A DNA stretch of 58,334 nucleotides, filler included, from Bipalium vagum (Eukaryota): the NCBI GenBank assembly GCA_037834085.1. It is 3 parts of 3 records of this genome, joined end to end, with 100 filler letters (N's around TTAATTAATTAA, not from the genome) between each part and the next. Parts side by side here need not be neighbours in the genome. Positions count along the whole stretch, not along the records: positions 25,222 to 42,338 come from JBBMKC010077992.1; 2 more parts are not named here. The stretch is one strand, 5' to 3'. The translations under genes were made by a program, and so were the position numbers. Below, in pieces: positions 3,301-58,334 of the stretch. The notes beneath the pieces are model-generated. The model was given only the letters and a program-made list of their open reading frames with translations, made no database searches and was not told where the DNA came from. Numbering within the stretch: position 1 is the first letter of the stretch; each line of letters begins with the position of its first letter.

Positions 3301-6300
3301 GAGGTAATTTTTTTCAAAACTGGGTTAGTAGACGCTTCATTCTTGGGTAATATTTGTTGCCACTTTAATTGCACAGAATTGGAAATTTTAAAATACTTTA
3401 GCTGATGAGCACAGAGCTTGCTTTTCTTCCACTTTTTGTCTACAACTTGTCAAAATTTTCACACATTTGTTTTTACGTTAATAAATGTTGGTGTTGTATA
3501 CAATTCTAGCTGAATTATTATTTTTAGTTACAATCGCTTCTCGAGCATTTATGAATTAGAAGAGTAAGTGCAAAGGTTAAACGTCCGTGTTTTGTTGACT
3601 TTTTAGCATTGGAGATGATATTGTTCAAGATATTTATTATTTGCAATTAATAATTTATAACATCTTTGCCAACTAGTTTCCTGCATATATTTCTGACAAT
3701 GTTTCTATCTCCTTTGTGTTTTTCTGGTAGCAATGAGAATGTTGTAATTTGATCGTTATCTAGTTTTCAAATCTGCTTAGTGATATATTAACCTTTTTTC
3801 ATCTATGTGAAATGACTCTGAATTTTATATTAAGAACACAGTCTTGGATTTGTATGGGAAGTGATTTGACACAATCAAATTGCAATTTGGTGATTCCTGT
3901 CAACTCTTCTCCAGTAACAAACGACTCTTTGCAACTCGACGATCAAATGGGTGATAGCAACGAAAAGCTTACAATTTTTGAAATGCTGTCCAGTTCCAGA
4001 TTGCAACGACCGGCAAGCGCTTACGTGAGTATAGAGATATCGATATTAATGATAATTTTTATTGGTTATTTATTAAATTTTTAAAAACTAAATAAGTTTT
4101 CTTCTTATTTCTGTAACCAAGATACGATTTTCGAAATTCTATTTTTTAATATTTGTTAAATTTTATTTCAAGAATCTATGAAAATATTTTTAAATGATTT
4201 AATTTAATTTGCATTTGAAAATATGAAAGAGCAATGAAAATAATCGATCAGTTGCAAAAATCAAAATAAATTAAATATCAAGAAGTCAAAAGGTAAAAAG
4301 AGAATAAAATATGAAATATAAATTTTGCGTGACAAGTTGTCTTTAGTATTTAGTTTGTTCATTATCCTTTATTTTATTTTTTTAAAGATTTTATTAACAT
4401 TTTTAGGTATTTAGTCCTTCTCATAATATGAACGGAACTTTAACGTCAGATTCTGGGTTTTATTCAGATCAGAAATCAAAAATTCAATCGTCCATAGAGT
4501 TATCATCACTAGATTTCCTTATGCATTCTGAATCGATAATCAATGAGCAAGTAACCTTCCATCAGCTCAAAGCCAAACTAATGGCAGATCTCAGTCCTCA
4601 ATTCCAAGGAAATGTTTATTCAGAAATGAATAATATTCCAGCCAGTAAAAAGCCATATTTTTGCCTGCGGGACTGCGAAGATATAACAATGTCATCGGGT
4701 TTGCATTATGTCATTTGTGTACATGGGCTGGATGGAGAGCATCGTGATCTTCGATTAGTTAAAGCCTATTTGACTTTGGCTCTTCCGGAACAGCGATTCG
4801 AGTTTCTAATGTCAGAAGCCAATGAACAGGACACATTTACCGATATTGACATTATGAAAGAGCGACTGGTTGATGAAATTCTAGACAAAATATCTGAAAT
4901 ACGAGAGAAACCTGATAAGATAAGGTAAGAATTAATCCTATGCCCCAAATTCAATTATTGATTATTTTTATTTTGTTGTGTTTGTTCTCTATTAACGCAA
5001 AAATAAATAGAATTACATAAAAACTAAGTAAATTTTTTTATTATTAAATTGAACTAGCCTATTTGGGAACAAAATTTGAATACCTTATAAAGAATACAAA
5101 TAAATTTATTAAACATGGGTGTTAATAAAATTTTAATATATTAATTAATATTTATAAAATAAATTTAATTGTTATTAAAAATTTGAAAAATTTGTTGGAA
5201 AATGATAAAATTTTAAAGGATTATTTAACTGAGGATATTCAAAGTGCGGAAAAACCATACGAACTTATGATATCGAAATAATGTTAGTAGAATAAAGTGA
5301 TCAAATAAAGTTAAGTGATGATACAAAGAGAAAAAAATTATCAGCCAAAATACTGTTTAATTTTTATCCTTTTATTTTGAACTCCAAAGGAACTCATGTG
5401 GATAGCGGTATGAACTGCGGATATCTGATGTTCTCAATGAATATAAAACTTCGTTTTTTCTAATTTGTTTTACCATAATTCCAAAAATATCATAGAAAGG
5501 CAATTGTGTACGTTAGAAGGTAACGTATGAAAAAGTTTAGCAGATGGATACGTAATAAATAGGACGAGGCGAAAGATTTTTGAGAATATTATCAGTAAAG
5601 ATGATATAGAATCAACAGTAATCATAAAGAGCAATGGCTTGACAATCAACAAGAATTGATAGAAGATAACTTCTCGATACGGAAATTTCAAGTAGAAACG
5701 AAATCTTAATAAAGCTAGAAAAAAGACTAAAACATAAATCAGACCCATTCAAGATCATGGAGACTTTTATCATCTAAAACCACAAGTATAATTGAGATAA
5801 AGAGATGCGGAATAACTAGGGAGAAGCTCATTATAAATTATACCTTTCCAATGCCATCAAACTGAAACAAAACATTATAAAAACTCAAACTTATTTTGAG
5901 AAACACTTTGATTTACTCGCAATATCTTGCATTTTATATTGTTATCAATATTCATTTTTATCATATATTGTTAGCGGTTTTGAAAAATTTTCCTCGCTTC
6001 GTTCCAATAGGAAATTGCAACCAAAAAGGCACTCATTCTTGTTTTTTCTAATAACTTGTAAAGAGATCAATGAAAGAATGAGCTCAGCAAAATTATTCCT
6101 ACCTAAACTATAAATCACATCTAATCTTTTCGGTCATATTTCATTTTGTGTTTAGTTACAATTATTTCATTCGCAAAAAATTAAGATTTACGAGAAATAT
6201 GTATAATCCGCCTATTTATTATATACTTAAAATATGGTAAAGAATCAATTATAACGTCACCCTAATATGGCATGACAGGTGAAAAGTATTCATGAAACTA

Positions 6301-9300
6301 AAGAAAAAATCAAAAATTCCATTTATTATTATTATTAATTAAAAAATAATATTTTATTATCGATTGTCGATAATTAATATCTAATCAGAAGGAAATTCTC
6401 AATACATTTGATAAATAAAATGACAATTTTCGAGTACAAAAGAACATCAACATCGGTAACACTTTGAATATCTAGATAGCTTCTAATCGAAAATCAGTTT
6501 TTGAACATTTTTCTGATAGTTCTTTATTACAGAACTGAACTCGAATATATTTCCATTTGTAACAAATATTTTATTGATTTTTTTTGTTATTTCATGACCA
6601 TTATTACTAATAATATTATATTCATTTTTGAGGTGTTGATTAATACACTAAAGGAAAAATATACCCCTCAATGGTTGCCGCATGTTTGACATGCCTGTCT
6701 TAAGTGATTCGTTTAATATTTAGAATCATTCTTTATACTTTTTAATTTTCTATTAAAGATGTCCTGAAAAAATTAATTATTTTCCTTGGGCATTGTGATT
6801 TTGGTTTCCTTGTTAAACTCGATTTTGACTTTTGTTCTTTAATCTATTTAGCATATTTTAATATTTTTTGAGGACAATATTTAGAAAATCTAGTTTTTGA
6901 AACTTTTTTTTAATATTTTTCTTTACCTAACAAATTTATAAATTATTTCCTTCATTAATTTATAATTTTTTTATTTATCATAAAGAATGAATTCTTTGTC
7001 CGTTAAAACTCTTTCGAGATAAAACTGTTTTCAAAGATAATTTCTACTTATATTTCATTTACATAACGCTTCCCATATTCTTATTATGAAAAAAATTCCG
7101 AGAAAATCTACAAAAATCATCGTATTGATTTTTTTATTTTGTAGATAAATATGCATCGAGTATTATTGATTCACAATTGTTTTAGAAAATAATAAAAAGT
7201 CAAGGAAATAAAATTGTATTTACTTGTGTTTTGCTACGCTTATTTAATGCGTTGATAGGAAAAATTATTTTCCAATGAGAAATTAATTGATATTTATTTT
7301 TGAAAAGACAAATTAAAAGTACTCTTTTTCTAATTTCAAGAATTTTCTTCTGTTTTGTGATGTCAGGGTGAAATTTTTGAGTGAGCAAATGTTAAGAAAT
7401 TTTCAAAGGGGATGTTTTAACCTCACAATTGACATTGAAGCAAAATTCGAAAATGGTCTACTCACTGGGTTTTCTAAAAGGTGTAATAATAATTGTCCTA
7501 ATGGGAACATTTATAAGATCTATTACTTTACTCGATGTAATAATCGTACAGTTCAACAGAATAATTGATTGAATAAATGGTAATTAGTGAATTTGTTTTA
7601 AGTATGTAAACACTGTCGTATAACCATACGTAATTGATTTATTATCAGAGTGAAGTAAGGTAATAAATTTGAAGTTTGAAGCGTCTGTCCTAAGATTTTG
7701 AATCTGGATTTACAGAGTATCGTACCCAAAATGTAGAGCATAGTTTTCGGCATATAAAGGTGTGTTAATATCAAAAGAAATGTAATATTGCTTTGGCTTT
7801 TTTTGAAAATATAGATTTCAGAAACCTTTACAAATAGAAAATTAAAATATTTTAAGTCATATAATAATTCCTTTACATCAGAAATGTTTTTTCTCTCAAA
7901 GGGTATTTTATTAATAGATTCAAAACTAGACCATTGATTATAAGGGTTTATAGGCCAAAAGTATTTTTTATCATTTAAAATCATTTACAATTTTCATTTG
8001 AACGTAGTTCGGCTATAATTATTTTAAAAAATATGCCTCCGGTCTAAAAACTAAGAGTTAATGTGAAAGTTTTCAAGTCGATTAAAAGATTGAGTTTAGA
8101 AATGAATTCAAACTGAGGGAAAAATGGCCCGGTGATAGGTTTTAGTCCTCGATTAAATTTAATTGTTTTATAACTTGAACTTTACTCTTTTTATTAATAA
8201 TATTATTATTGATTCTGTTTTAAAACCAATCCAACTTTACTCCATTTAGCTTCATTGGACACAGTCTGGGATGTTTATTAATCAGAGCTGCCATTGCCAG
8301 TCCAAGAATGGCCCAACTGATCCCCAGATTTTACACCTTTTTGTCACTCGGTGGTCCTCATTTAGGAACAGTTTATGGATCAAGTATGTTGGTCAATGTT
8401 GGACTTTGGGTAATGCAAAAAGTTCGAAAATCGATCTGCTTGCAACAATTGGGCATGAAAGACTGTGCAACGGATTTGCGTCAGTCATATCTCTATGGAC
8501 TTAGTGGTCAACCTGGACTGGAGTACTTTAAATACGTTTTATTGGCCAGCTCATCTCAAGACAGATATGTTCCATATCACAGCACTCGAATCGAATTGTG
8601 TAAAGCCGCAGTCAAAGACAATTCAGAAATGGGTTTGTTCTATTTGATATTTCTAATTAAATTACAATGCATTAAAACTCAAATTTATTAATCAGTTAAA
8701 CTTTTTTATTTTTTAAAAATTTTAATTTGTGAATTCACCATGGATTTTTTCATGATAATAATAGTGAATATTTTTAATTTATGATTTCATGAAAAATATT
8801 CTAAACAAAGTTTAAATAGATCTCTTAATTCTGAATACTTTCTCGTTAGACATTATGTCACTGTCGCTTAATCAAAACCCTTATCTGCTTACTTCTCTAT
8901 CATTTATATTCGGTTCTAACTCACTATATCGGAACTGAAATGTTAATCAATGTTCAATTGATAGATTAAAATGAATTTGATTGACTGAATCCCAATGTCA
9001 TTTTAATTGAAAAATTACTCTAAACATATTAATTTTCAAATGGATTTTTTGAATGCCAATTTTCGAACGTTTTTTTCATTTAATAATTTATTTTATCTCA
9101 CAAGATTTAAATATTTCAATAACTTACGGTATTTTTAAAAAACTGATTTAAAAGCTGTGTTTAAATAATGCATGAAAGTTGTCAAAAAAATTTTCAATAA
9201 ATATTAATGGCATTATTTAATATTTCGTAGGTGCTTTTGTTATTATTTTCTAAGATGAAGATGAAATCGATGTTTTTTCGATGATTTGAATTATTTTGTT

Positions 9301-14818: not shown

Positions 14819-14855
14819 AAGAGTATAAACTACAATCTTTAAAAACATTGAAATT

Positions 14856-22291
<7,436 letters not shown>

Positions 22292-24579: not shown

Positions 24580-25121
24580 TTAGTTGAGTTAGACACTGCT
24601 GAGATAATTCATCCGCATTTGAAATTGAGGTGTAATTGGCTTTTTAGTCTTGAAAATGAATTCGATGGCTTTATGATCCGTTCTTACTAGAGATCTTTTA
24701 CCATATAGATAATGCTTGAAATGATTGCAGAAATAGTATATAGCTAATAATTCCTTCCTTGTAATACAATACCATTTTCGTGGCTATTCATTGCATGTGA
24801 CCCGTACGCAATAACTCTCTTTTCCGTTATCGTCGATCTGTGATAATAAGGCTTCAATTGCCTCAAAACTGGCATCAGTATCTAATACAAATTGCTTTTT
24901 AATATCTGGAAACGCTAGTACTGGGGTTTCTGTTAAAGCTTCTTTCAACTCTTGGAAAGCTAAATTGCATGCACCGGTCCAAAAAAGCTTCTCCTTGTTC
25001 TTGCCACACAATTCTTCTAGAGCTCTTGATTTTCTTGAATAGTCATCGATAAATTTTCTATAATAATTACAGATACCAAGGAAGCTTCTTAAATTCTTTA
25101 TGCATTTTGGTCTTTCGAAGG
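24580..25121 (-). mobile_element. Ty3/Gypsy LTR retrotransposon RT-RNase H fragment, truncated by an assembly gap
   Basis: LRSFLGICNYYRKFIDDYS...AFQELKEALTETPVLAFPD..KQFVLDTDAS...TRKELLAIYYFCNHFKHYLYG...RTDHKA. Confidence 0.9.
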
Positions 25122-25221
25122 NNNNNNNNNNNNNNNNNNNNNNNNNNNNNNNNNNNNNNNNNNNNTTAATTAATTAANNNNNNNNNNNNNNNNNNNNNNN
25201 NNNNNNNNNNNNNNNNNNNNN
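25122..25221. other. Assembly gap spacer N44-TTAATTAATTAA-N44
   Basis: Exactly 100 bp with a palindromic all-frame stop linker; identical design to 42339-42438. Confidence 0.95.
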
Positions 25222-25334
25222 TAATTAATATAAGTACTACTATATTAAATATAATTATACAACTTTTATTTCATTACTTACATTATTCATGAAGTTATGA
25301 CATTTATTACTGCCAAAAATTTTGTTGCTCAGTA

Positions 25335-25605
25335 TATTTGTAATGAAGAATATTTTAAATGATATAAACACCAATGTGGGTATAAAACATGTCCAATTTG
25401 TAATGAAAAATACAAACCTCCAATCATTAATTACAAATGTTATTTAAAAAGTAATGAAGGAGAATTTAAACAAAGTAATAAATATTTTTTTTGATTTTGA
25501 AGCTACTCAAGAAAATGCTGATTATCATGAAATGAATTACGCAATTGCTTATGATTCAGAAAGAACACTTTATTATAAAATATAAAATAATTCAATTACA
25601 TTTTT
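25335..25605 (+). mobile_element. Polinton/Maverick pPolB fragment (second copy)
   Basis: Close nucleotide similarity to 40815-41089: Cys-rich segment and FFDFEATQE..HEMNYAIAYD. Confidence 0.75.
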
Positions 25606-26349
25606 TAAACTTATTAATGAAAAAATTTTGATTTAAAGATTTTAAATGTAATTCACCTGGGTATTTTTCAGTTGTAAATTTATTTAAAAATTTATTATTT
25701 TTGATTTGTGATTGGATGTCTCCTCCTGTTTTTATAAAAAAGATGGACATTTTTCTTGAATTTTTTCATTAGTACTTTTTTAGTACTATTAGTATTTTTA
25801 TTAGTACTTTTATTAGTATCTTTAGTTTTATTTTTCAAATGTATGTTTATCTTTAAATGTTTTGATTTATTATATTTTGAAATATATTTGTCACAAATTT
25901 CACAATACTATTTTTCCACTGTCGTTTTTTATTTAAAAATGTTATTTTATTTTGATAAAATTTTAATATTCCATCCTTAGATTTTCATCTATTTTCGAGT
26001 AATTATAAATAATTATATCAATCAGATTTTCATGTTGTTCTTTTATTTTATTTTTATATGATTCAAATGTGCAATAATCTATTAACTATAATAAATCTTT
26101 AGAATAGGATTTTTAATCTTCTAAATTAAAATTTTTAGCTCTTAAAAATATTTCATAATATTTATTTTGTGGAAATTTATTTTGTATTATATTATATTTG
26201 TATTTATATTTGTATTATATTTAATTCTAGATTGGAAAGGTTATTTAAATCGTTTCTTTTCGTCTTCATTTTTAAAGAAAAAATTTGATTTTTTTAGTTT
26301 TAAATTTTTAGTTTTTTTATTTTGATTTATTTTCTGTTTATGTTTTTGT

Positions 26350-26480
26350 TATTTTTTTAGTTATTTTTTAGTTATTTATTTAGTTATTTATTTAGTTATT
26401 TATTTAGTCATTTATTTAGTTATTTAGTTATTTATTTAGTTATTTATTTAGTTATTTATTTAGTTATTTATTTAGTTATA
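26350..26480. repeat. AT-rich ~12-bp minisatellite (TTATTTATTTAG)n
   Basis: Tandem TTAGTTATTTAT units are directly visible. Confidence 0.85.
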
Positions 26481-26779
26481 TTTTAATTTATTTTTTTAGT
26501 TATTTTTTATGACTTAAAGCGTACCCTGTTTGTAAACACGTTTTTGACGAACAAACGAGTATGTCAAATTAAATGATTAAAAAACCAAATGGCTTTCATT
26601 GTTCACATTTCTTCTGTAGGTTTGAGTCACTAAATTTACCAAAAAAATCGAACTGTGTATTGAGAAGATATTGAAATGTTTCAGACAGCAGATGAAAGAC
26701 AGTAGAGTTTAGTTGTGAGTGAGAATGTTAAAATTCAAATGTTCACCTATTGCACAGCAACCAGGAAGACAGCTGATGC

Positions 26780-27750
26780 ATATGAAATAAAAAATTGATG
26801 AAATTGTTTCATAAATATTATCAGCAGAAGTTTTAGCTTAGTATAAAAGTCCATGGAATTCTCCGTTGGTGGTGGTAGTGAAGAAGGATTGGTCAGTAGG
26901 AATATGCATTGATTTCAGACGAATAAATAATATCACGGAAAAATTTACTTTTCCTTTCACAAATATAAAAATTCTATTGGATTGTTTAGCTGATTCCAAG
27001 TACTTTTCATCAATTGATTTGAGTTGTAGATTATATATATATATATAATCATATTATCAAATGGATTTGTCAGAAACTTCAAGACTGGCTTTCAGTAAAC
27101 AAGGTCAATTTTTTTAACCGTTTACTTTTTGGCTTAATAACAAAGGAGAAGACCATTGTGTTGTTGACGGTTTGTCAGGATTATCAGATGTTTATGTTCT
27201 CCATGTCAGACAATGCATCAACATGCAAAATTAAAAAAGCTGAAAGCCAGATATATCACTGTTGTTGAGAAAAGTGATTCTAGTCTGGAATTAATGCATA
27301 GAAAAAGAATGAACAAAATTCAGATCTAATGATAACTAAGATCAAATGTTATTTGAAAGAGGAGAGAAGAAAAATATTCGAAAAGTTGACAGAATAACCT
27401 TAATATAAGGGATAATTTGAATATCGTTGATAATTTACTTGTTTTAAGAAAGAATGTACGAAACCTAACATTATTTCCGAAAGATTGTAGAGGAATTTGT
27501 GAAGGAGATCCATTCAAAATTGTGTCATTTTGGAAGTAATAAGATATTCCCTTTTTTTTAAATGGAATTTTGGCAATCAATGTTGAACACAATTAAAACT
27601 TGTTTAAAGAACTGTGTTATTTGTGCTAAAAGAATAATAGATTAGATGCGTACCAAGGAAGATATTACCCCCAGAAGAAGTTCTCACTTATAGAGCAAAG
27701 CCTCTTGTGGTAGCTTTTAAGGAAAGGTTTGGAGCTGTAAGCTGGTTTAC
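26780..27750 (+). mobile_element. Decayed Ty3/Gypsy pol fragment (RT N-terminus and downstream remnants)
   Basis: KSPWNSPLVVVVKKDWSVGICIDFRRINNITEKFTFPF...LADSKYFSSIDL; the 3' boundary is approximate. Confidence 0.75.
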
Positions 27751-29001
27751 TTAGATGAAACAACTGTCAGCTTACAACAAACCAGAAATTTTTGCCACCA
27801 TACTCGCCTCAATTAAACCTGATCGAAGAATTTTTAACAGCTTGAAGTCGCAAATATCATCCTTTATAAGAACCATTATAGATCAGGACTATTTAAAAGG
27901 ATTGATTACCCAAGTATGCATGCATGACGATATCCATTTAAGTGATTATTTTCGCAATATAAATCCTTGGAGAGACAAGAATTTCGTCCCGAGTGTTTTA
28001 TTGTTTTTATATCTACATTTCCACTCGTTTATTTTTTATGAAATATATATGATTTTTTTCTATAAATTTCTATATTTTTAATGTCAATCGGTTTTTAATC
28101 AGAACTAGAAGTTATTTTTTGAACAGATTTATTAAGTGATAAAACAAATAATATTTTAACAAATTTTCTCAGACCTGAAAATTCATTATTTTATTAAATC
28201 TTAAAAATAAGTTTACTTTTAAAATCTCATTCATACTTTTTAAATATTTTAAAATTTAAATAAATAATTAAAAAAATTCCCTAGGTCTAATTAGCCGCCT
28301 CATATATATATTTCTGAATAATTTTTTATATATTTCTGCATAACCTTGTATATTTTTTAGACTTTAAATGAGAAATTAATGCTGTTTTAGTTTTAAAATT
28401 TGTATTACATTCAATACAAAATAAATCCTCAAAATAAAAAAATTAATTTAAATAGTTTTTATAAAAGTTAAATGTTTATTACGTGAAAATTAATGAGTTA
28501 ATAAATTTATAAAATTTTGAAATTTGTAACTTTTTTTATAAAAATTTATATAAATCATTAAATTTATAAAAAAAATTGACAACTTGCAAAATCAATAATG
28601 AAAAAATTAATGAAATTTCAATAATAAAAAGTCAATAATCAATGAAGTCATTGAAATATTGAAATTTGAAAAAATGTGATAGTAATGAGGAAAAAGCTAA
28701 TTTTGTTGGTATTAAATTTTCGATATTCGGTATTCGATTCGATATTGAGGTATTGCAGTATTCGGTAATGCATATTCATAAAATTTCAAATTGGATTTAT
28801 TGGATATTCAGTATTTGGGCTTTGGTGTTGGTAGCAATTAGCAGTTTCCCACTACTTACATTTTCCTTTAAAACTATTTTCAAGACAAAAATAATAAAAT
28901 TATCAAGAGTATGCGATAATAAGTTAATAAATATTTATAATTTTTAAATTTTTTTTGATTTTGAAGTTAATTATGTAAATAATATTCTTAAAAATATTTA
29001 C

Positions 29002-32000
29002 GTCAAATGCCGGTGCATTTTCAGCTGGCTTTATTTCAAATGGTAAACTAGCAATATCTTCACTCAAGTCTGTGGTTGGTAAAGTTCTCGTTGACTGAAT
29101 AGCATTGCATTGTAAATTATTCTTTTTTCCTATACACCCTGGTTTTGCTTTCAAAACGCATCCTATTTTTTTCTCCAAACTAATTTCTGGTTTTATCCAA
29201 TATCTGTGGCAAAGAAAGAAATTCAATTTAAAAAGATATTTTTAATTCTTTTTTATTAATTAAATAAATAATTAGTATTCTACAGAATTTATCTTATGGG
29301 TTTATTATTATAAATATTTTTAAGAATATTAATCAAATGGATCTCAAATTATTCTTATGAAATATAATTTAAATTTTAAATATTTTTTTAAAAAATGCAT
29401 TTAAAATATATATTAAAACTCTTCCAGTAATATTAATAAGGTGTTACTAGTAGGTAATCTTTTAAAATAGTAAACAAAAGTGAGTTAAGTTTGAAAATAA
29501 ATGTAGAAATTAAATATATCAGTAAAATAAAATAATAAATAAGAATTATCCAGTTTTGCGCAATTTCATAAAAACATTCAGATAAAAAGATAACAGAAAT
29601 ATAATAAATGGTAAATATGTTATTAAGAAAACTTTTTCAATATTTTTTATTTATCTCTGATAAAGTGCAATAAACAAATTTCAAACTCAATATGATAATA
29701 CTCAAATGTCTTATATTTAATATTATTACTGCTATCAAAAAATTTATATAATTGCAATTTCAATAAACATCAATCTTAAAAACCATAAAAAATTACATAT
29801 ATGTGGGCCAATATTTAATATTATCCGGGTCGTCAACAGGTATGTTAAAATCACTGTCCATTACATTAATATTTTCTGAGGTCTCTGTGTTTTCGTTAAT
29901 TTCCAATGATTCGACCTTATTACTTATTTCTTGTATATCTTCAGAGATTAAAAACTTTTCGAAAAATTTATCTTTCCTTTGTTTTGTTTTCTTTTGTTTG
30001 ATTTCATAATTTTCTTGTTCTAATTTAGAGATTTCAATTGTTTTACTCAACTCATTCTCTACCTGATTCAATTCTTCAACTCCTAAAAATAATAGTTCTT
30101 CACCAACCTTAATTATATTATCTGAAACTATATTTTGGTCAATTTCCAGACTATTTTCCAATTCATTTTTCGATTCATCATCTTTCAGCACAGCATTACT
30201 CAAAATATTTTTACTCATCAAATCTTTACTTAACAAATCTTTGCTCAAATCTTCTTTATTTAAATGATCATTTTTCAAACCAACTTCAGAATTAGTCGTT
30301 GGTATACAATTTATTTGTTCGTGATCTGAGGTTGGGGAAACTTCCAAAATTTGATTATCTTCAATTTTTGATACTGTTGTTCTACAACAAAATTTATTTG
30401 ACTGAGTTTCAGGAATATTTGCTTGTTTCTCCTTAAAGTCCTCCGGTTTATTTAATTCTTGAACTTTCACAATTGAAATATTCTCATTAATAATAATTTC
30501 CTCTTTTACAATGTTTTCGTTCAATGATTCATTTGAGAATTTTGATTTTCTTTGATACCCAATATGGCACTTTTCTCTTTTATTAACATTTACAATGTCA
30601 GGAGAATTCCTATCATTATTTATATTACTTTCCCATTTTAAAAATCTATGGTCATTTTGAGTTTCCTTATATTTTTCCGCATTACTCTGATTTGTCCCAT
30701 GTTCATTTTCTTCTTTTGATTTATCATTTAAAAATGACCAAGGCACTTCCAATTTAGATTCTTTGCCCAAAGATTTATGAACCTCAATCTTATCAAATTC
30801 CTTATATTTTGTACCATTGTTTAAATTATTTTTTTGTGAGATGTCGGGCTTATAACTCTCATAACAATTGTTGAAAACTATAATATTATGTCTATTTGGA
30901 TCGTATAATTTGTGTTGAGATAATATTTTTGACTTTTCAATTAATCGATTTTTTTCTCTGACTTCACGTTCCTTTTCACATTTCGATTTGAAATCTTTTC
31001 TCTCTTCTTCCAATCTTTTTAGTCGATTGAACTGTTGTAACTTTAACTTGTTCATATTTTCTTGCTCCAGTTGTTTCTTTTCCTTTAAAAACAGTTCTTC
31101 GTCAACTGGTTTATCGGTTTTGCTTTTATCCATTTTATTTTCAATTTGAATTGGCTTATTGACTTTAGATTGGAATGAAGAATTTTTAATTTTATTATTT
31201 TCACAACAGTTTTTTTTTTCGGAGACGTTATTTATTTTAATTAAAATCGGTTCATAACTTTCATTTTCATTATACAATTTTTGCATATTTTCTTCTCCAG
31301 GTTCGTCTTTTTTCTCAAAATTTTCATTAATTTGTTCATTTTCATATTCTTCCATATTGTAATCGAATATCAGTTTAGATTCCACATCATCCTTACTACT
31401 TTCTGTTGGTTTAGATATTTTATCTTTATGAATTGTATTTCCTTCATTGAGTAAGTATTGTTGGTCCTGTAAAACTTTATTATTCTTAAAATGCTTTTCA
31501 CGAATATCACTATCTTGGCAGCATAGATTACAACTTTTATCTTTATTATATTTATCGATATTTGTAGACTTTATTTTGATATTATCTTCTTTGTTAACAT
31601 CTTTCTTTACACTTTTTATGATGTGTTTTTCTTGTATTTTTGTCGAATTTTGGTCTTCATATTCCTTAGATCTTTTTAGAACTTTAATTTCAGAATCAGT
31701 TGAAGATTCTGGGTGAGATTCTTTAGCTTGTGGAACTTTTAAGAGTGGATTATAATTAGATCCTAAAAGAATTTCCTGACTTCTATAAATTTTTATATTC
31801 TTTGAATTATCGGATTTTATACAACACTGACCACATGTTCTATAACCAGTGGTAACTATATGTTTATCAGTAACAACTGGACTATTTTCTTTTATTTCTG
31901 TTTTGGTACACAAGTTACATTTTGTCTTTTCATCTAATTCCTTCTTTTTTATATTTATTAAATAACTGCTTGGTTCAGAGGTCTTTGCTGGTTCACTAGA

Positions 32001-35000
32001 ATCGTCTTTATTCTTTGAAATTTCTGATTTGACACAGCACTGGGCACATGTTCTATCACCAGTGGTAACTATATGCTTATCAGTAACACCTAAGCTTTTT
32101 TCTTTTATTTCTGTTTTGGTACACAAGTTACATTTTGTCTTTTCATCTGATTTCTTTTTTTTTATATTTATTAAATTACTGCTTGGTTCAGAAGTCTTAG
32201 GTGGTTCACTAGAATCGTCTTTATTCTTTGCAATGTCTGATTTTATACAACACTGAGCACATGTTCTATCTCCGGTTGTAATTAAATGTTTATCGGTAAC
32301 AAGTGATCTATCTTGCATTATTTCTGTTTTAGTACATAAATTACATATTTTATTTTCACCCGCTTCCTTTTTTATATTTATTAAATTTCTGCTTGGTTCA
32401 GAAGTCTTTGGTGGTTCACTAGAATCGTCTTTATTCTTTGAAATTTCTGATTTGACACAGCACTGGGCACATGTTCTATCACCAGTAGTAACTGTATGCT
32501 TATCAGTAACAACTGAGCTGTTTTCTTTTATTTCTGTTTTGGTACACAAATTACATTTTGTCTTTTCATCTGATTTCTTCTTTTCTATATTTATTAAATT
32601 ACTGCTTGGTTCAGAAGTCTTAGGTGGTTCACTAGAATCGTCTTTATTCTTTGCAATGTCTGATTTTATACAACACTGAGCACATGTTCTATCTCCGGTT
32701 GTAATTAAATGTTTATCGGTAACAAGTGATCTATCTTGCATTATTTCTGTTTTAGTACATAAATTACATATTTTATTTTCACCCGCTTCCTTTTTTATAT
32801 TTATTAAATTTCTGCTTGGTTCAGAAGTCTTTGGTGGTTCACTAGAATCGTCTTTATTCTTTGAAATTTCTGATTTGACACAGCACTGGGCACATGTTCT
32901 ATCACCAGTAGTAACTGTATGCTTATCAGTAACAACTGAGCTGTTTTCTTTTATTTCTGTTTTGGTACACAAATTACATTTTGTCTTTTCATCTGATTTC
33001 TTCTTTTCTATATTTATTAAATTACTGCTTGGTTCAGAAGTCTTAGGTGGTTCACTAGAATCGTCTTTATTCTTTGAAATTTCTGATTTGACACAGCACT
33101 GAGCACATGTTCTATCTCTTGTGTTAATTAAATATTTATCAGTAACAACTGGTCTATCCTCCTTAATTTCAGTTTTAGCACACAAATAACATTTTTCATT
33201 TTCACCGGCTTCTTTTTTTATACTTATTATGTGTTTGTTTGGCTCAAAATTCTTATATTCTTCATTAGATTTGTCTAGATTCTTTGAAATGTCTGAGTTG
33301 ACACAGCACTGACCACATATTCGATCTCCAGAGGTAGTTAAATGCTTATTAGTAACGACTACAGAGTCTTCTCTTATTTCAGCATGAGAGCAGAAACTAC
33401 ATTTATTTTTTTCAACATTTGTTTTCTCTTTTTTAATTAGTAAATTACTCTTTGTTGTGTTCTCTTTTTTTTCGTCATAATTCATTTCATTAATTTTAAT
33501 ACTTTCTAGAATTTCTTTCGATTGATCTCTCAGAATTTCTTTTTGATTGGATTTAGTTTCCTTTAGATTTACATATTCCTCACATGGGTCTACCTTAATA
33601 ATTTTTGTGGTACAACATTCAATTGAAACATTTTGGTTTATATATTTTACTATGTTATCAGAATTTGCATCAGTTGGCAAATTTTCACTTGATAAAGCCT
33701 CAATAAACAATAGGTCTTTTTTTGTTTCTGTTTTTTTACAACAAATGCATTCTGTTTGCGTTTTATGATTAAATTTCTCACTACCTTTTAACTGTTCTGA
33801 AATTGAATTTGACTTGTATTTTGTTATTAATATATTCACATCCTTATCGTTTTCATCTGTTTGTTTGTCTAGATTTTGATCTGTACTTAAAATATTTTTT
33901 TCATTTTGTTGCTTATCATTGTAACTACATATGCATGTTTCACCACAAATATTTTTAGTTTTTCTACTTCTTAAATCTTCACTGAATTCATATTCTGGTT
34001 CTTTTGGTGTAACTTTCAAATTTACATCACTTTTATTTGCAGATTTACAAATATCTTTGCACCTTACATTGTTACACAAACAAAAAGATCTTTGATTTTT
34101 TTCGATACCTTTGCTTTCTTCTAATTCATTTTTTTGATATTGACTTTTGATTCTCTGATCGTTATCTTTGTCTGTACATCTCATAACACATACATCTCCA
34201 CAGATTGTGTTATTTTTCCTTATTTTATTTCTATTTGTATTTTCTATATCATTTTCAATGTTATCGTTATAAATAGATTCATCTGGCTCTTTGTAAGATT
34301 TTACAGTCATATTCTGTTCATCATTTTCCTGAGATTGAGATTTTACTCTTTTCTGATCATTATAACATGTACATTTTCCGCACAATACTTTACTCTTTCC
34401 AGTTACATTTTTCGGTACTGTCTCTTTATTTTTTAGTGAATCATTTTCAATATTTGCACAACAAATAGGCTTAGATGATTCTTCCTCGTGTGATTTAATG
34501 GGCTGCTCTTCACTCTCTTGATAATGAGATTTCACTCTCTTCTCATCTTCATTCTTACATGTGCATCTCTTTATACATGTATTGCAATAGACCGTTTGTA
34601 TTTTTTCACTTTTATTTTCCTTTATTTTATTTTTTGACTCTTTAATTTCATTTTTTTGTAAGTCATTTTTAATATTTGACCAACAAATAGGTTCTTTTTG
34701 AGATCTTATTGTTATATTTTTTTTAACTTTCTGTTCTTCATTTACTTCAGATTGAGATTTTACTTTCATTGGTTCATCATTTTGACATGAACACTTCCTG
34801 ATACATGTATTATCACAGATTGCTTTACTTTTCCAGTGTTCATTTTCCTGTATTTTATTTTTGTAATCATCGAATTCATCTTTTTCAACAGGTGATACTT
34901 CCTCGTGGGATCTTTCATTCATGTCTTGCTTCATTTTTAGTTTTTCATTCTCTTGAGATTGGGATTTAATTTGTTTCTGATCATTTTTACAAGTACATTT

Positions 35001-56334: not shown

Positions 56335-57374
56335 ACAAAATATCCATTAATGGAAATCACTTTTTGCTATCTTTTAGGTAATTGCCGAATCCCAGAACGA
56401 TAAAAAGATATTGGTTTTGACGCAAAATAATTCTTGATAAAATCTCGTATCTGGTTAGCATTTTTGAAACATCTGGCTAATTCATGTTGCATTGAGTGAA
56501 ACAAATGAAAATCTGTAGGAGCAAGGTCTGGAGAATAAGCCGCTTGAGGAAGTACTTCCCAACCTAATTGTAAGATTGTTTCTTGAGTATGTTTGTCGCT
56601 ATATGCGGTCTGGTATTGTCGTATACCAGGACAATCTTACGCGATCCTTGCCCGAAAAAAAGATCTCTTTTTCTTGATTTGTTTAGCCAAATGCAGCAAT
56701 TTTTATTAAAACGTTCCGCATTAATGTTTGAATTAGAATATAGAATTATAATGGTTGAATTGAATCATAATGAATGGGTCCTTTCATATCCCACCAGATG
56801 CAAAGGAATACTTTCTTATTGTGAATATTGTTTTGACAGCTGAAGTAGCTGGCATTCCAGATTCTACCCACGAATTTTTGGTTTTGGATTATTGTAATTA
56901 ATCCATTTTTCATCTCCAGTGACGATTTTCCTTTTTTATTAAGTCTTTTTTTATTTGTCTAGAAATAAGGGATGCGCATGTTGTTAATCGGCATAAAATA
57001 TGGCTTTCGGAAAGTTCGTGCGGAATCCACTTTCCAGCCTTCTGAATTTTTCCCATGTCGTGTAACCGTATCCCAACAGTTCTTTGATCAACGGCAAGTT
57101 GCTTAGCGAGTTCTACTTGCGTCTGGACTGCATTTTCATTCAGCAGCTTTTCCAATTTGGTTGATTTCAATATCTGTGGAGCGCCACTACGTGGTCGAAC
57201 GATAACATCAAAATTTCCGTCTTTGAATCGACGATACCAGTATTTACATGTACCAAGGGATACGGCATTATTAACAAGAACAGGACATATTGATTTAAAT
57301 GCCTGGGATGCATTTTTGCCTTGATCAAATTCATATCTTATGCAACACTGAAAGAACAATTTTTCATCACTCAT
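56335..57374 (-). mobile_element. Near-full-length frameshifted mariner transposase pseudogene
   Basis: HTH (IRYEFDQGKNASQAFKSI...WYRRFKDGNFDV..RPRSGAP), WIPHELSE, IVTGDEKWINYNN, YDNTRPH and AYSPDLAPTDFHLF across shifted frames. Confidence 0.9.
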
Positions 57375-58334
57375 TTTGAAGACTGATATTTTGTTTTTTT
57401 AAAATAACTCAAGTATAAAATTAATATATTTATAAAATTTAATATATTGATTGACAATGTAAAATTTCGCGGCAGTTATTTGAGAATAATAATTGATTAA
57501 TAAAACAACGATGAAAAAATGGTTTAAAATTTATGCCTACACATAATATATTGATTATTATTAAGCAAAATAGCCGATTAAAACAATTGTTATTTTGGTT
57601 AATTAGATTATTTTCGTTTTCCATCACTATAATATTTTAAACAAAATTTAATTAATTTAATAAATTCTTTTTAGTCTATTTTAAATCATTTATTATTTAT
57701 GACAAGTGATAACAATAATAATAATAATAATAATAAAAGTAATAATTTCAATTTCTTTATGTTTACTGTTATAATTGTAAAACTTGTGTCATTATCCTGA
57801 ATTTTATTAATTTTTTATTCCAGCTGAAAGCGTATGTTTTCGATTATTCGAAAAGTTTGATGATGTCATATGAGGGTCAAGGAGGAAATTCATTCAAAAC
57901 AGTTCTAGTTGATTACTTTCAAACAAAAGTATTAAATTCAAATAAAAATAATTATCTAATGATAAAAATTTATCTGAAAATATTTATTTTTATTTTTATT
58001 TTTATTATTAGTAGTATTGTTAGTACTTTAATTTTATTATTATTATTATTATTATTATTTATTATTATTATTATTATTATTATTTATTATTATTAAATTT
58101 ATATTATTTAAAAAATATTATTATATTATTATTTAATTTAAAAAGTTATCAATTTTAGAGAAACTTAACGCATTATTCTTTATTTACCGATTTATTATCG
58201 GTATCGTTTAAAGAGAATTCATTAACCATGGTTTTAGTGGGTTCAGTGAATAAATATTATTAGGGGTTTTAATTAATTTCCGCCGTTTTTAGAACAAAAA
58301 GAACATTTATTTTTACTACAATCATAATAAATAG

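Follow-up and report, generated by a model that had tools for sequence, protein, structure and literature searches.

Eight cysteine-rich units are repeated in tandem within one long open frame

The stretch of DNA analysed here (the window; 58,334 nucleotides, nt, of the Bipalium vagum assembly GCA_037834085.1, filler included) carries on its minus strand a tandem array of eight assembled cysteine-rich protein units, which lies within a giant predicted exon. The reading that we favour, and to which we would assign a probability of about 45%, is that these units are zinc-binding beads with a treble-clef-like layout, carried on a disordered and probably intracellular scaffold, as sequence features and weak structural models suggest. 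The array sits in a frame (29793-36614, minus strand) of 2,273 codons and one stop, in which the pattern C..C.{24}C..CC is matched exactly eight times, at amino acids (aa) 1072-1598, from nt 33401 to nt 31821; when the protein was shuffled 10,000 times, the mean number of such matches was 0.0006. Start-to-start spacing of the units is 70, 71, 70, 71, 70, 71 and 71 aa, and Tandem Repeats Finder (TRF) places the array at 31796-33360, with periods of 213 and 423. An initial annotation of this DNA had proposed eight CxxC-x24-CxxCC units of about 70-71 aa, with no strand given, and both the exact pattern count and the spacing bear this out.

All five cysteines are invariant in 8/8 units, as had been claimed. 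The TDKH motif, described as usual, is present in six of the eight units (unit 1 has TNKH and unit 2 has TDKY), and its histidine is kept in 7/8. Altogether, 16 of the 46 core columns do not vary, among them, besides the cysteines, Ile14, Val21, Thr22, Arg32, Gln36 and Ser41, and such invariant residues are more readily expected of a folded unit than of a bare linear motif. The units are not equally related to one another. Units 3 and 5 show no difference (210/210 nt) and units 4 and 6 almost none (211/213 nt), which, together with the TRF period of 423, agrees with the 423-bp dimer noted earlier; the most diverged is unit 1, in which 29-30 of 99 core nt differ from all others. Units 3, 5, 7 and 8 form one group (A; FastTree support 0.96), and a shorter linker of 24 aa, the 'KKEA' form, precedes each of units 2, 4 and 6. 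The resulting order is 1-B-A-B-A-B-A-A'; the A/B alternation is older than the last duplication, and the higher-order structure seen at first persists even without the perfect 423-nt tandem.

The array is coding and likely belongs to a gene of several exons

The array frame is interrupted by one stop in 2,274 codons, versus 74-391 stops in the other five frames, and the chance of a stop in this DNA is 8% per codon. GC content by codon position is 0.36/0.29/0.21 in this frame, compared with 0.17-0.20 in flanking non-coding DNA. Because frame-consistent GT-AG introns flank the frame (Table 1), the 6,817-nt stretch is likely one exon of a gene of about 2,450-2,460 aa or more, of which three exons are seen; a filtered scan of the 25222-42338 contig returned no further exons. 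The giant protein that had been proposed would correspond to a 2,273-codon frame that carries the array within a predicted multi-exon gene. The product of the giant exon is rich in Lys, Glu, Asn and Ser and has no hydrophobic segment, and cysteines make up 40 of the 527 residues of the array (7.6%) and 102 of the 2,273 residues of the frame (4.5%).

The cysteines of the array are under selection. First and second positions of Cys codons vary in none of 10 columns, versus 34 of 82 elsewhere (Fisher p 0.012); third positions vary (TGT/TGC) at two of the five cysteines, and the residue never changes. Pooled across the six distinct 46-codon cores, non-synonymous and synonymous proportions (pN/pS) are 0.159/0.337 = 0.47, and the pairwise ratio omega is below 1 in 15/15 pairs of these cores (0.17-0.71; the pairs are not independent). 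On charge-hydropathy the cores fall on the ordered side (0.46 versus a boundary of 0.42), with the disordered side taken by the linkers (0.30) and by the remainder of the protein (0.36-0.37), and the bead-on-string picture with Ser/Pro/Glu/Lys linkers, put forward in the initial annotation, fits these values.

One might still suppose that the repeat is largely unstructured, that its cysteine clusters act as short linear motifs (in loose metal or redox buffering, or in S-acylation beside basic residues), and that it expanded through slippage and unequal exchange, its copy number being under little selection. The pooled pN/pS ratio speaks for this, as do the low confidence of the structural models, the decay of another array in the same exon, the half-units that occur singly (both described below) and the absence of a relative from any collection searched. 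However, the 24-residue spacer is exact in 8/8 units, the diverged unit 1 included, there is no non-synonymous change of a cysteine, and the cores lie on the ordered side. We therefore consider an unstructured repeat unlikely.

The repeat is present in sequencing reads, and its assembled length depends on one perfect duplication

Within 32163-33076, which contains units 3-6, a comparison at a lag of 423 gave zero mismatches over 491 nt, and the two positions at which units 4 and 6 differ are situated just beyond this segment. A public run, designated here X1, contains this DNA (share 0.97). X1 behaves as DNA, because its contigs on 33450-39000 read through the predicted 45-nt intron, unskipped and at a flat depth near 25; it may be the source sample, so that it gives no independent support for the assembly. 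One X1 contig of 5,191 bases matches 33450-38262 without a difference at a depth of 23.9, and its other end can be placed at 33072 (5,191 minus 4,813 bases), which is the edge of the window's duplicated 31-mers. As the X1 assembly branches exactly at the edge of the array, the repeat is real, and the reads hold several copies of the array sequence. The assembled number of units is eight; six, eight or ten are equally compatible with the data, because a short-read graph is the same for any number of passes through a 423-nt loop. The recent expansion by unequal crossover that had been proposed is therefore not established, since it depends on one perfect 423-nt duplication, possibly a loop unrolled by the assembler.

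It could be argued further that the whole frame is dead or unexpressed, or that the array was built by the assembler, as units 3-6 stand in a perfect tandem that an assembler may over- or under-count. We find this very improbable. An assembler could not have produced six mutually diverged units, the X1 contig described above is identical to the window over its match, and the long open frame, its codon-position GC asymmetry and the frame-consistent splice sites at both ends all argue against it.

A zinc-binding bead with a treble-clef-like layout is the favoured reading

In the bead that we propose, the first CxxC would form a knuckle, after which a loop would lead into a beta-hairpin (TDKHxxTTG-DRTC), and the remaining pair of ligands would come from CxxC(C), where the second strand ends, much as a treble clef is laid out. 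We would take the fifth cysteine and the histidine for spare or second-site ligands, and eight beads on flexible linkers of 24/25 aa would bind a repeated partner multivalently. AlphaFold2, run on six-row alignments, returned models with a mean predicted local distance difference test (pLDDT) score of 58 for one unit and 38 for two units. One hairpin (21-29/32-39 or 32-40) is common to 3/3 modelled units, with a pLDDT of 43-69 over this block; in these low-confidence models the second cysteine cluster (34-38) lies within a strand and the turn is at 30-31. A zinc ribbon has two knuckles, each at a hairpin turn. Metal binding had been put forward in the initial annotation and is what we, too, would favour. 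The suggestion that the module is 'Zn-ribbon-like' seems to fit less well than a treble-clef layout, as the models place the second cluster along the second hairpin strand and not at the turn. With the weak 46-aa unit model, Foldseek gave no match at E<=0.001 and the best Z score in VIA-align was 3.4 among 48,161 chains; fold searches at such a background level show neither novelty nor difference of fold.

We also compared the unit with defined classes of zinc fingers. In the treble clef, as described in PMC4999995, a knuckle with the consensus CPXCG is followed by a loop, a hairpin and a second ligand pair, which the N-terminus of a helix supplies. For zf-FCS, PMC4047054 gives the consensus CX2CX14-30FCSX2C and tandem clusters of up to 10. 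All eight units have the spacing of the latter class, in the form C-x2-C-x23-[TI]-C-[AG]-Q-C, with T/I and A/G at the sites of Phe and Ser in 8/8. None of the zf-FCS/MYM/TRASH families of Pfam was found for the six distinct units at E<=10, in a search where HMMER filters drop most weak matches. With the FCS residues absent from all units and neither a Pfam nor a profile match, we rejected membership in zf-FCS; the C4 zinc-binding domain of ClpX was rejected as well, since its two cysteine pairs do not both align and there is no Pfam match.

For the zinc-bead reading it counts that an odd number of cysteines per unit does not, it seems, close as self-contained disulfides. Several observations weigh against it. 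A pN/pS near 0.5 means weak constraint. The weak models draw no helix after the second cysteine pair, which a treble clef requires, and CxxC is found in 8/8 units but the Pro and Gly of CPXCG in 0/8. A profile of the unit aligns only knuckle columns of known fingers, eight with Escherichia coli YacG (probability 3.7%) and nine with residues 1-60 of E. coli ClpX (6.9%), and the sole zinc-finger score in Pfam is that of zf-Vps39_C, with E 0.13 in 2/6 units. Vicinal CC pairs scattered along the protein, together with the weak likeness of the two halves of a unit, fit thiol clusters as well as discrete fingers. Finally, the 5' end of the predicted gene is beyond the three exons seen and may encode a signal peptide.

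This last point is of importance for a quite different proposal, namely that of a secreted disulfide-bonded repeat protein (an adhesive, mucus or cocoon protein), in which the ten cysteines of an A/B pair would form five disulfides. The cysteine count of such a pair is even; moreover, flatworm glue proteins are giant and have long central tandem repeats that defeat short-read assembly, according to PMC8621496. On the other hand, no vWD, C8, TIL, EGF, LDL, TSP-1 or lectin domain was found in about 2,460 aa (for vWD, C8, TIL, EGF and TSP-1, Pfam gave no match in the three predicted exons, although other exons of the gene could encode them). There is no signal-like or membrane segment in these exons (best 19-residue hydropathy 0.91); the upstream exon in particular has no signal-like hydrophobic stretch or leader, and no known domain. 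N-glycosylation sequons are at chance level (32 versus 33.5 expected), and the net charge of the protein is near zero. A secreted protein seems to us, on this balance, decidedly unlikely.

The exon hosts an older cysteine array and single half-units

Upstream of the eight units, in the same exon, lies an older and decayed array (aa ~460-910) of about 6-7 units of ~68 aa, with the motif PIC[CW]xxI[ED]N...C-x3-C-x3-C-x-C. Its DNA matches itself at a lag of 67 aa, with an E of 1.8e-54 and 62.6% over 788 nt; cysteines are lost from several of its copies, and indels occur. Neither Pfam, ESM Atlas nor the metagenomes yielded a relative of it. The young array is missed by a profile built on the older one (best 2.7 bits without null2 correction), and common ancestry of the two is therefore not shown. 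Two stray half-units flank the young array: CICC-KKTETK, from aa 956 onward, is in the top 0.35% of 1,711 non-array 8-mers for a motif picked after inspection, and CNLCC-QDSDI, from aa 1695 onward, which resembles two unit halves fused, is in the top 2.2%. The halves of a young unit are themselves weakly alike after the last cysteine (xKTEI / xKSEI; top 1.1% of 1,711 8-mers, the motif again being chosen post hoc). Outside the array there are 10 CC doublets versus 2.2 expected, a number reached in 0/5,000 shuffles. The exon is thus a long-standing host of cysteine-cluster repeats, which have expanded in it at least twice. The unit was probably born locally, from cysteine-cluster motifs scattered in the exon, and spread by tandem duplication; the young array would then be a second wave, following the older upstream one.

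One could go further and suppose that a metal-binding fold was born within one flatworm lineage. The unit would come from a duplicated CxxC(C)-x-K-[ST]-E-I half-motif, of which stray copies persist in the exon; five cysteines and one histidine would make six ligands per unit, and an A/B pair would therefore hold three zinc ions, one of which would be shared by the two units, this bridging zinc being the reason for the A/B alternation. Two successive waves of de novo cysteine-repeat birth and decay would complete this scheme, which we regard as a speculation with a small chance of being right.

The same distribution of cysteines may also be read as that of a structural protein cross-linked through its thiols, such as one of the sperm tail or of another hardening cytoskeletal structure, in which cysteine clusters hold zinc during construction by the cell and are later oxidised to inter-chain disulfides; at its zinc stage this overlaps with the reading that we favour. 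CC, CxC and CxxC clusters return every ~35-70 aa across 1,150 aa, in two arrays that look unrelated, and the odd number of cysteines per unit leaves one for inter-chain bonds. Zinc-then-disulfide chemistry has been reported in the outer dense fibres of mammals (PMC11354358), and there are giant disordered proteins of the testis that contain internal tandem repeats but lack any known motif, e.g. mouse Laidx (PMC7263670). Nevertheless, neither RIIa nor any other sperm-protein domain is found in the exons seen, and the conserved hydrophobic and hairpin residues exceed what plain cross-linking would need. We hold this alternative to be somewhat unlikely, and zinc-binding beads are still the reading that we prefer.

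Searches for relatives point to a lineage-restricted module

No match to a named domain had been recognised at first, and our searches of Pfam and PDB and with a hidden Markov model (HMM) of the unit led to the same result. Pfam has no named domain in the frame, whether taken whole or in parts, in the flanking exons or in the six distinct units. Against 1,835,955,588 cluster representatives the unit HMM gave two hits at E<=0.001, neither of them true: both are unrelated repetitive proteins in which the motif is absent and the score is a sum of weak stretches. A word-indexed protein search with the array region found no relative among 7,999 scored candidates (lengths 1,250-3,978 aa only), nor did one with the downstream exon among 12 candidates, and an exact look-up of eight proteins of the window found 0/8. 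ESM Atlas had no usable match for either array. Scans of metagenome and viral contigs gave 167, 589 and 58 pattern matches, of which none was confirmed. Searching PDB by sequence gave one pilin match (E 1.6), which is no relative, and nothing with two further queries; matches of the upstream exon to protein A were rejected, as they sum over repeated domains, with a best single-domain E of 1.8-2.6. In listings of the literature outside subscription journals and supplements, we found no description of a CxxC-x24-CxxCC motif.

The module is, as far as these absences reach, lineage-restricted, and confinement to one species does not follow from them. They give only a bound on the lineage, because free-living flatworms are thin in the collections searched: even the conserved FAM135 exon of the window (see below) has no match above 65% identity.

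If each unit is a zinc finger, then it represents a finger family that has no name and for which 1.84 billion representatives yield no relative. In such a case, likely precursors (the half-units) and an older decaying array adjoin it, which would make a compact case for the birth of a repeat domain, and a unit of 46 residues is easy to express. At present it stands as a further lineage-specific cysteine-rich repeat of a giant exon, of a type that other animals show as well. Judging from sequence, what we describe is probably a lineage-specific, cysteine-rich bead-on-string repeat, probably of zinc fingers, and not a new kind of system.

Surroundings of the gene in the window

The window is AT-rich (21-37% GC in 2-kb bins) and, because its spacers are joins of three contigs, genes on either side of a spacer may not adjoin one another in the genome. 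On the contig of the array gene, two copies of a high-copy repeat lie in inverted orientation on the two sides of the gene; they are likely independent insertions. That the gene is transposon cargo between these inverted repeats (~28140 and ~38850) was considered and rejected, as the repeats are only ~78% alike and high-copy and the gene has single-copy depth.

Table 1. Features of the array gene and its surroundings, with positions along the window
Feature	Position	Strand	Basis or remark
Predicted giant exon, 6,817 nt	29797..36613	-	enters in phase 1, leaves in phase 2; splice sites read from sequence
Predicted GT-AG intron, 45 nt	36614..36658	-	phase 1 on both sides; sequence
Predicted upstream exon, ~120 codons	36659..37019	-	phase-0 acceptor, or ATG near 36926, as start; sequence
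Predicted GT-AG intron, 593 nt	29204..29796	-	phase 2 on both sides; 17% GC; sequence
Predicted downstream exon, 67 codons (YWIKPE...)	29002..29203	-	followed by GT donor; sequence
Young array, 8 assembled CxxC-x24-CxxCC units	31805..33416	-	with 24/25-aa Ser/Pro/Glu/Lys linker
Motif spans, units 1-4	33401-33303, 33191-33093, 32978-32880, 32768-32670	-	pattern match
Motif spans, units 5-8	32555-32457, 32345-32247, 32132-32034, 31919-31821	-	pattern match
Perfect tandem duplication with a period of 423 nt (total length 914 nt)	32163..33076	.	copy number as assembled
Older decayed Cys array	33885..35237	-	DNA self-match
Stray half-unit CICC-KKTETK	33715..33749	-	motif picked after inspection
Stray half-unit CNLCC-QDSDI	31495..31532	-	resembles two unit halves fused
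Contig of the array gene (middle one)	25222-42338		
100-base spacers (44 N, 12-base all-frame stop word, 44 N)	25122-25221, 42339-42438		joins of three contigs
High-copy repeat copies flanking the gene, ~78% alike	28060-28200, 38800-38940	inverted	summed depth 3,000-8,000 vs ~25
FAM135-like exons (DUF676)	4407-8691	+	Pfam

The host is presumably a free-living flatworm, provided that the three contigs come from one organism. Among the top 18 hits of the FAM135 exon, which is on the first contig, all 16 named proteins are from neodermatan flatworms, at 63-65% identity. In a tree of 36 rows, for which 35 of the 120 listed hits were chosen for spread, this exon has a long branch and no firm placement; it belongs neither to the neodermatan clade (96/83) nor to a clade made up of 22 other rows (88/82). 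Further along the plus strand, at 14829-22291, there are FHA and forkhead exons with a His/Gln-rich and acidic tail, which by architecture we take to be FOXK-like. A poly(A)-binding-protein-like gene (42645-45253, minus strand) has its RRMs in one long, uninterrupted frame with Asp/Gly-rich insertions and its MLLE in a separate downstream frame, and it might represent either a retrocopy or a gene with a single intron.

Mobile elements have left several traces. Pieces of decayed long terminal repeat (LTR) retrotransposons occur at 24589-25122, 26842-28081 and 39038-40037; the protease was identified by Pfam, and reverse transcriptase and RNase H as well as integrase are presumably present too, judging by their motifs. 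Direct repeats at 25334-25645 and 40817-41130, 84-92% alike and 15.5 kb apart, contain decayed cysteine-containing frames, which we tentatively assume to be fragments of a Polinton-type DNA polymerase, as a candidate only. At 56910-57398 (minus strand) there is a fragment of a Mariner/Mos1-type transposase (HTH_48, Pfam).

Comparison with known systems

Among known systems, the array may be compared first with metallothioneins, which PMC12097635 defines by 15-30% Cys, low molecular weight and CxC/CxxC/CC motifs. CxxC, CC and CxC clusters, repeated modules and hydrophilic character are common to both, but the Cys share of the array and of the whole frame is far lower, long Cys-free spacers separate the clusters, and a protein of ~2,460 aa or more is not of low molecular weight; we thus rejected this assignment. 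The likeness to the adhesive proteins Mlig-ap1 and Mlig-ap2 (PMC8621496) is that of giant proteins from flatworms, in whose central part two tandem arrays occur that are hard to assemble from short reads. They differ in that units here are of ~70 aa versus 221-255 aa, and that vWD, C8, TIL, EGF, LDL and TSP-1 domains, a visible leader and Gly-Arg-Lys tracts are all missing from the exons seen. Mouse Laidx shares with our protein a very long frame, predicted disorder, internal tandem repeats and the lack of a known domain, and the cysteine-rich sperm-tail proteins of outer dense fibres share cysteine clusters, which here too may bind zinc; both are analogies only, no sequence link having been sought or found.

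Closer in layout are two classes of zinc fingers. The zf-FCS/MYM/TRASH family has cysteine spacing in the same range (CX2C-X14-30-xCxX2C) and forms tandem arrays of similar size in large proteins; it differs from the array described here, which has T/I and A/G for Phe and Ser, a terminal CC, long Ser/Pro/Glu/Lys linkers and no Pfam match. Treble-clef C4 fingers differ from it by their CPXCG knuckle and by a terminal helix that the weak models do not predict here, and the array in turn has an extra vicinal cysteine and a histidine, a 24-residue spacer and no sequence or fold match. Nonetheless, these fingers, as presented in PMC4999995, share with our unit the order of CxxC, loop, predicted hairpin and second cysteine pair, all within a unit of ~35-45 aa.

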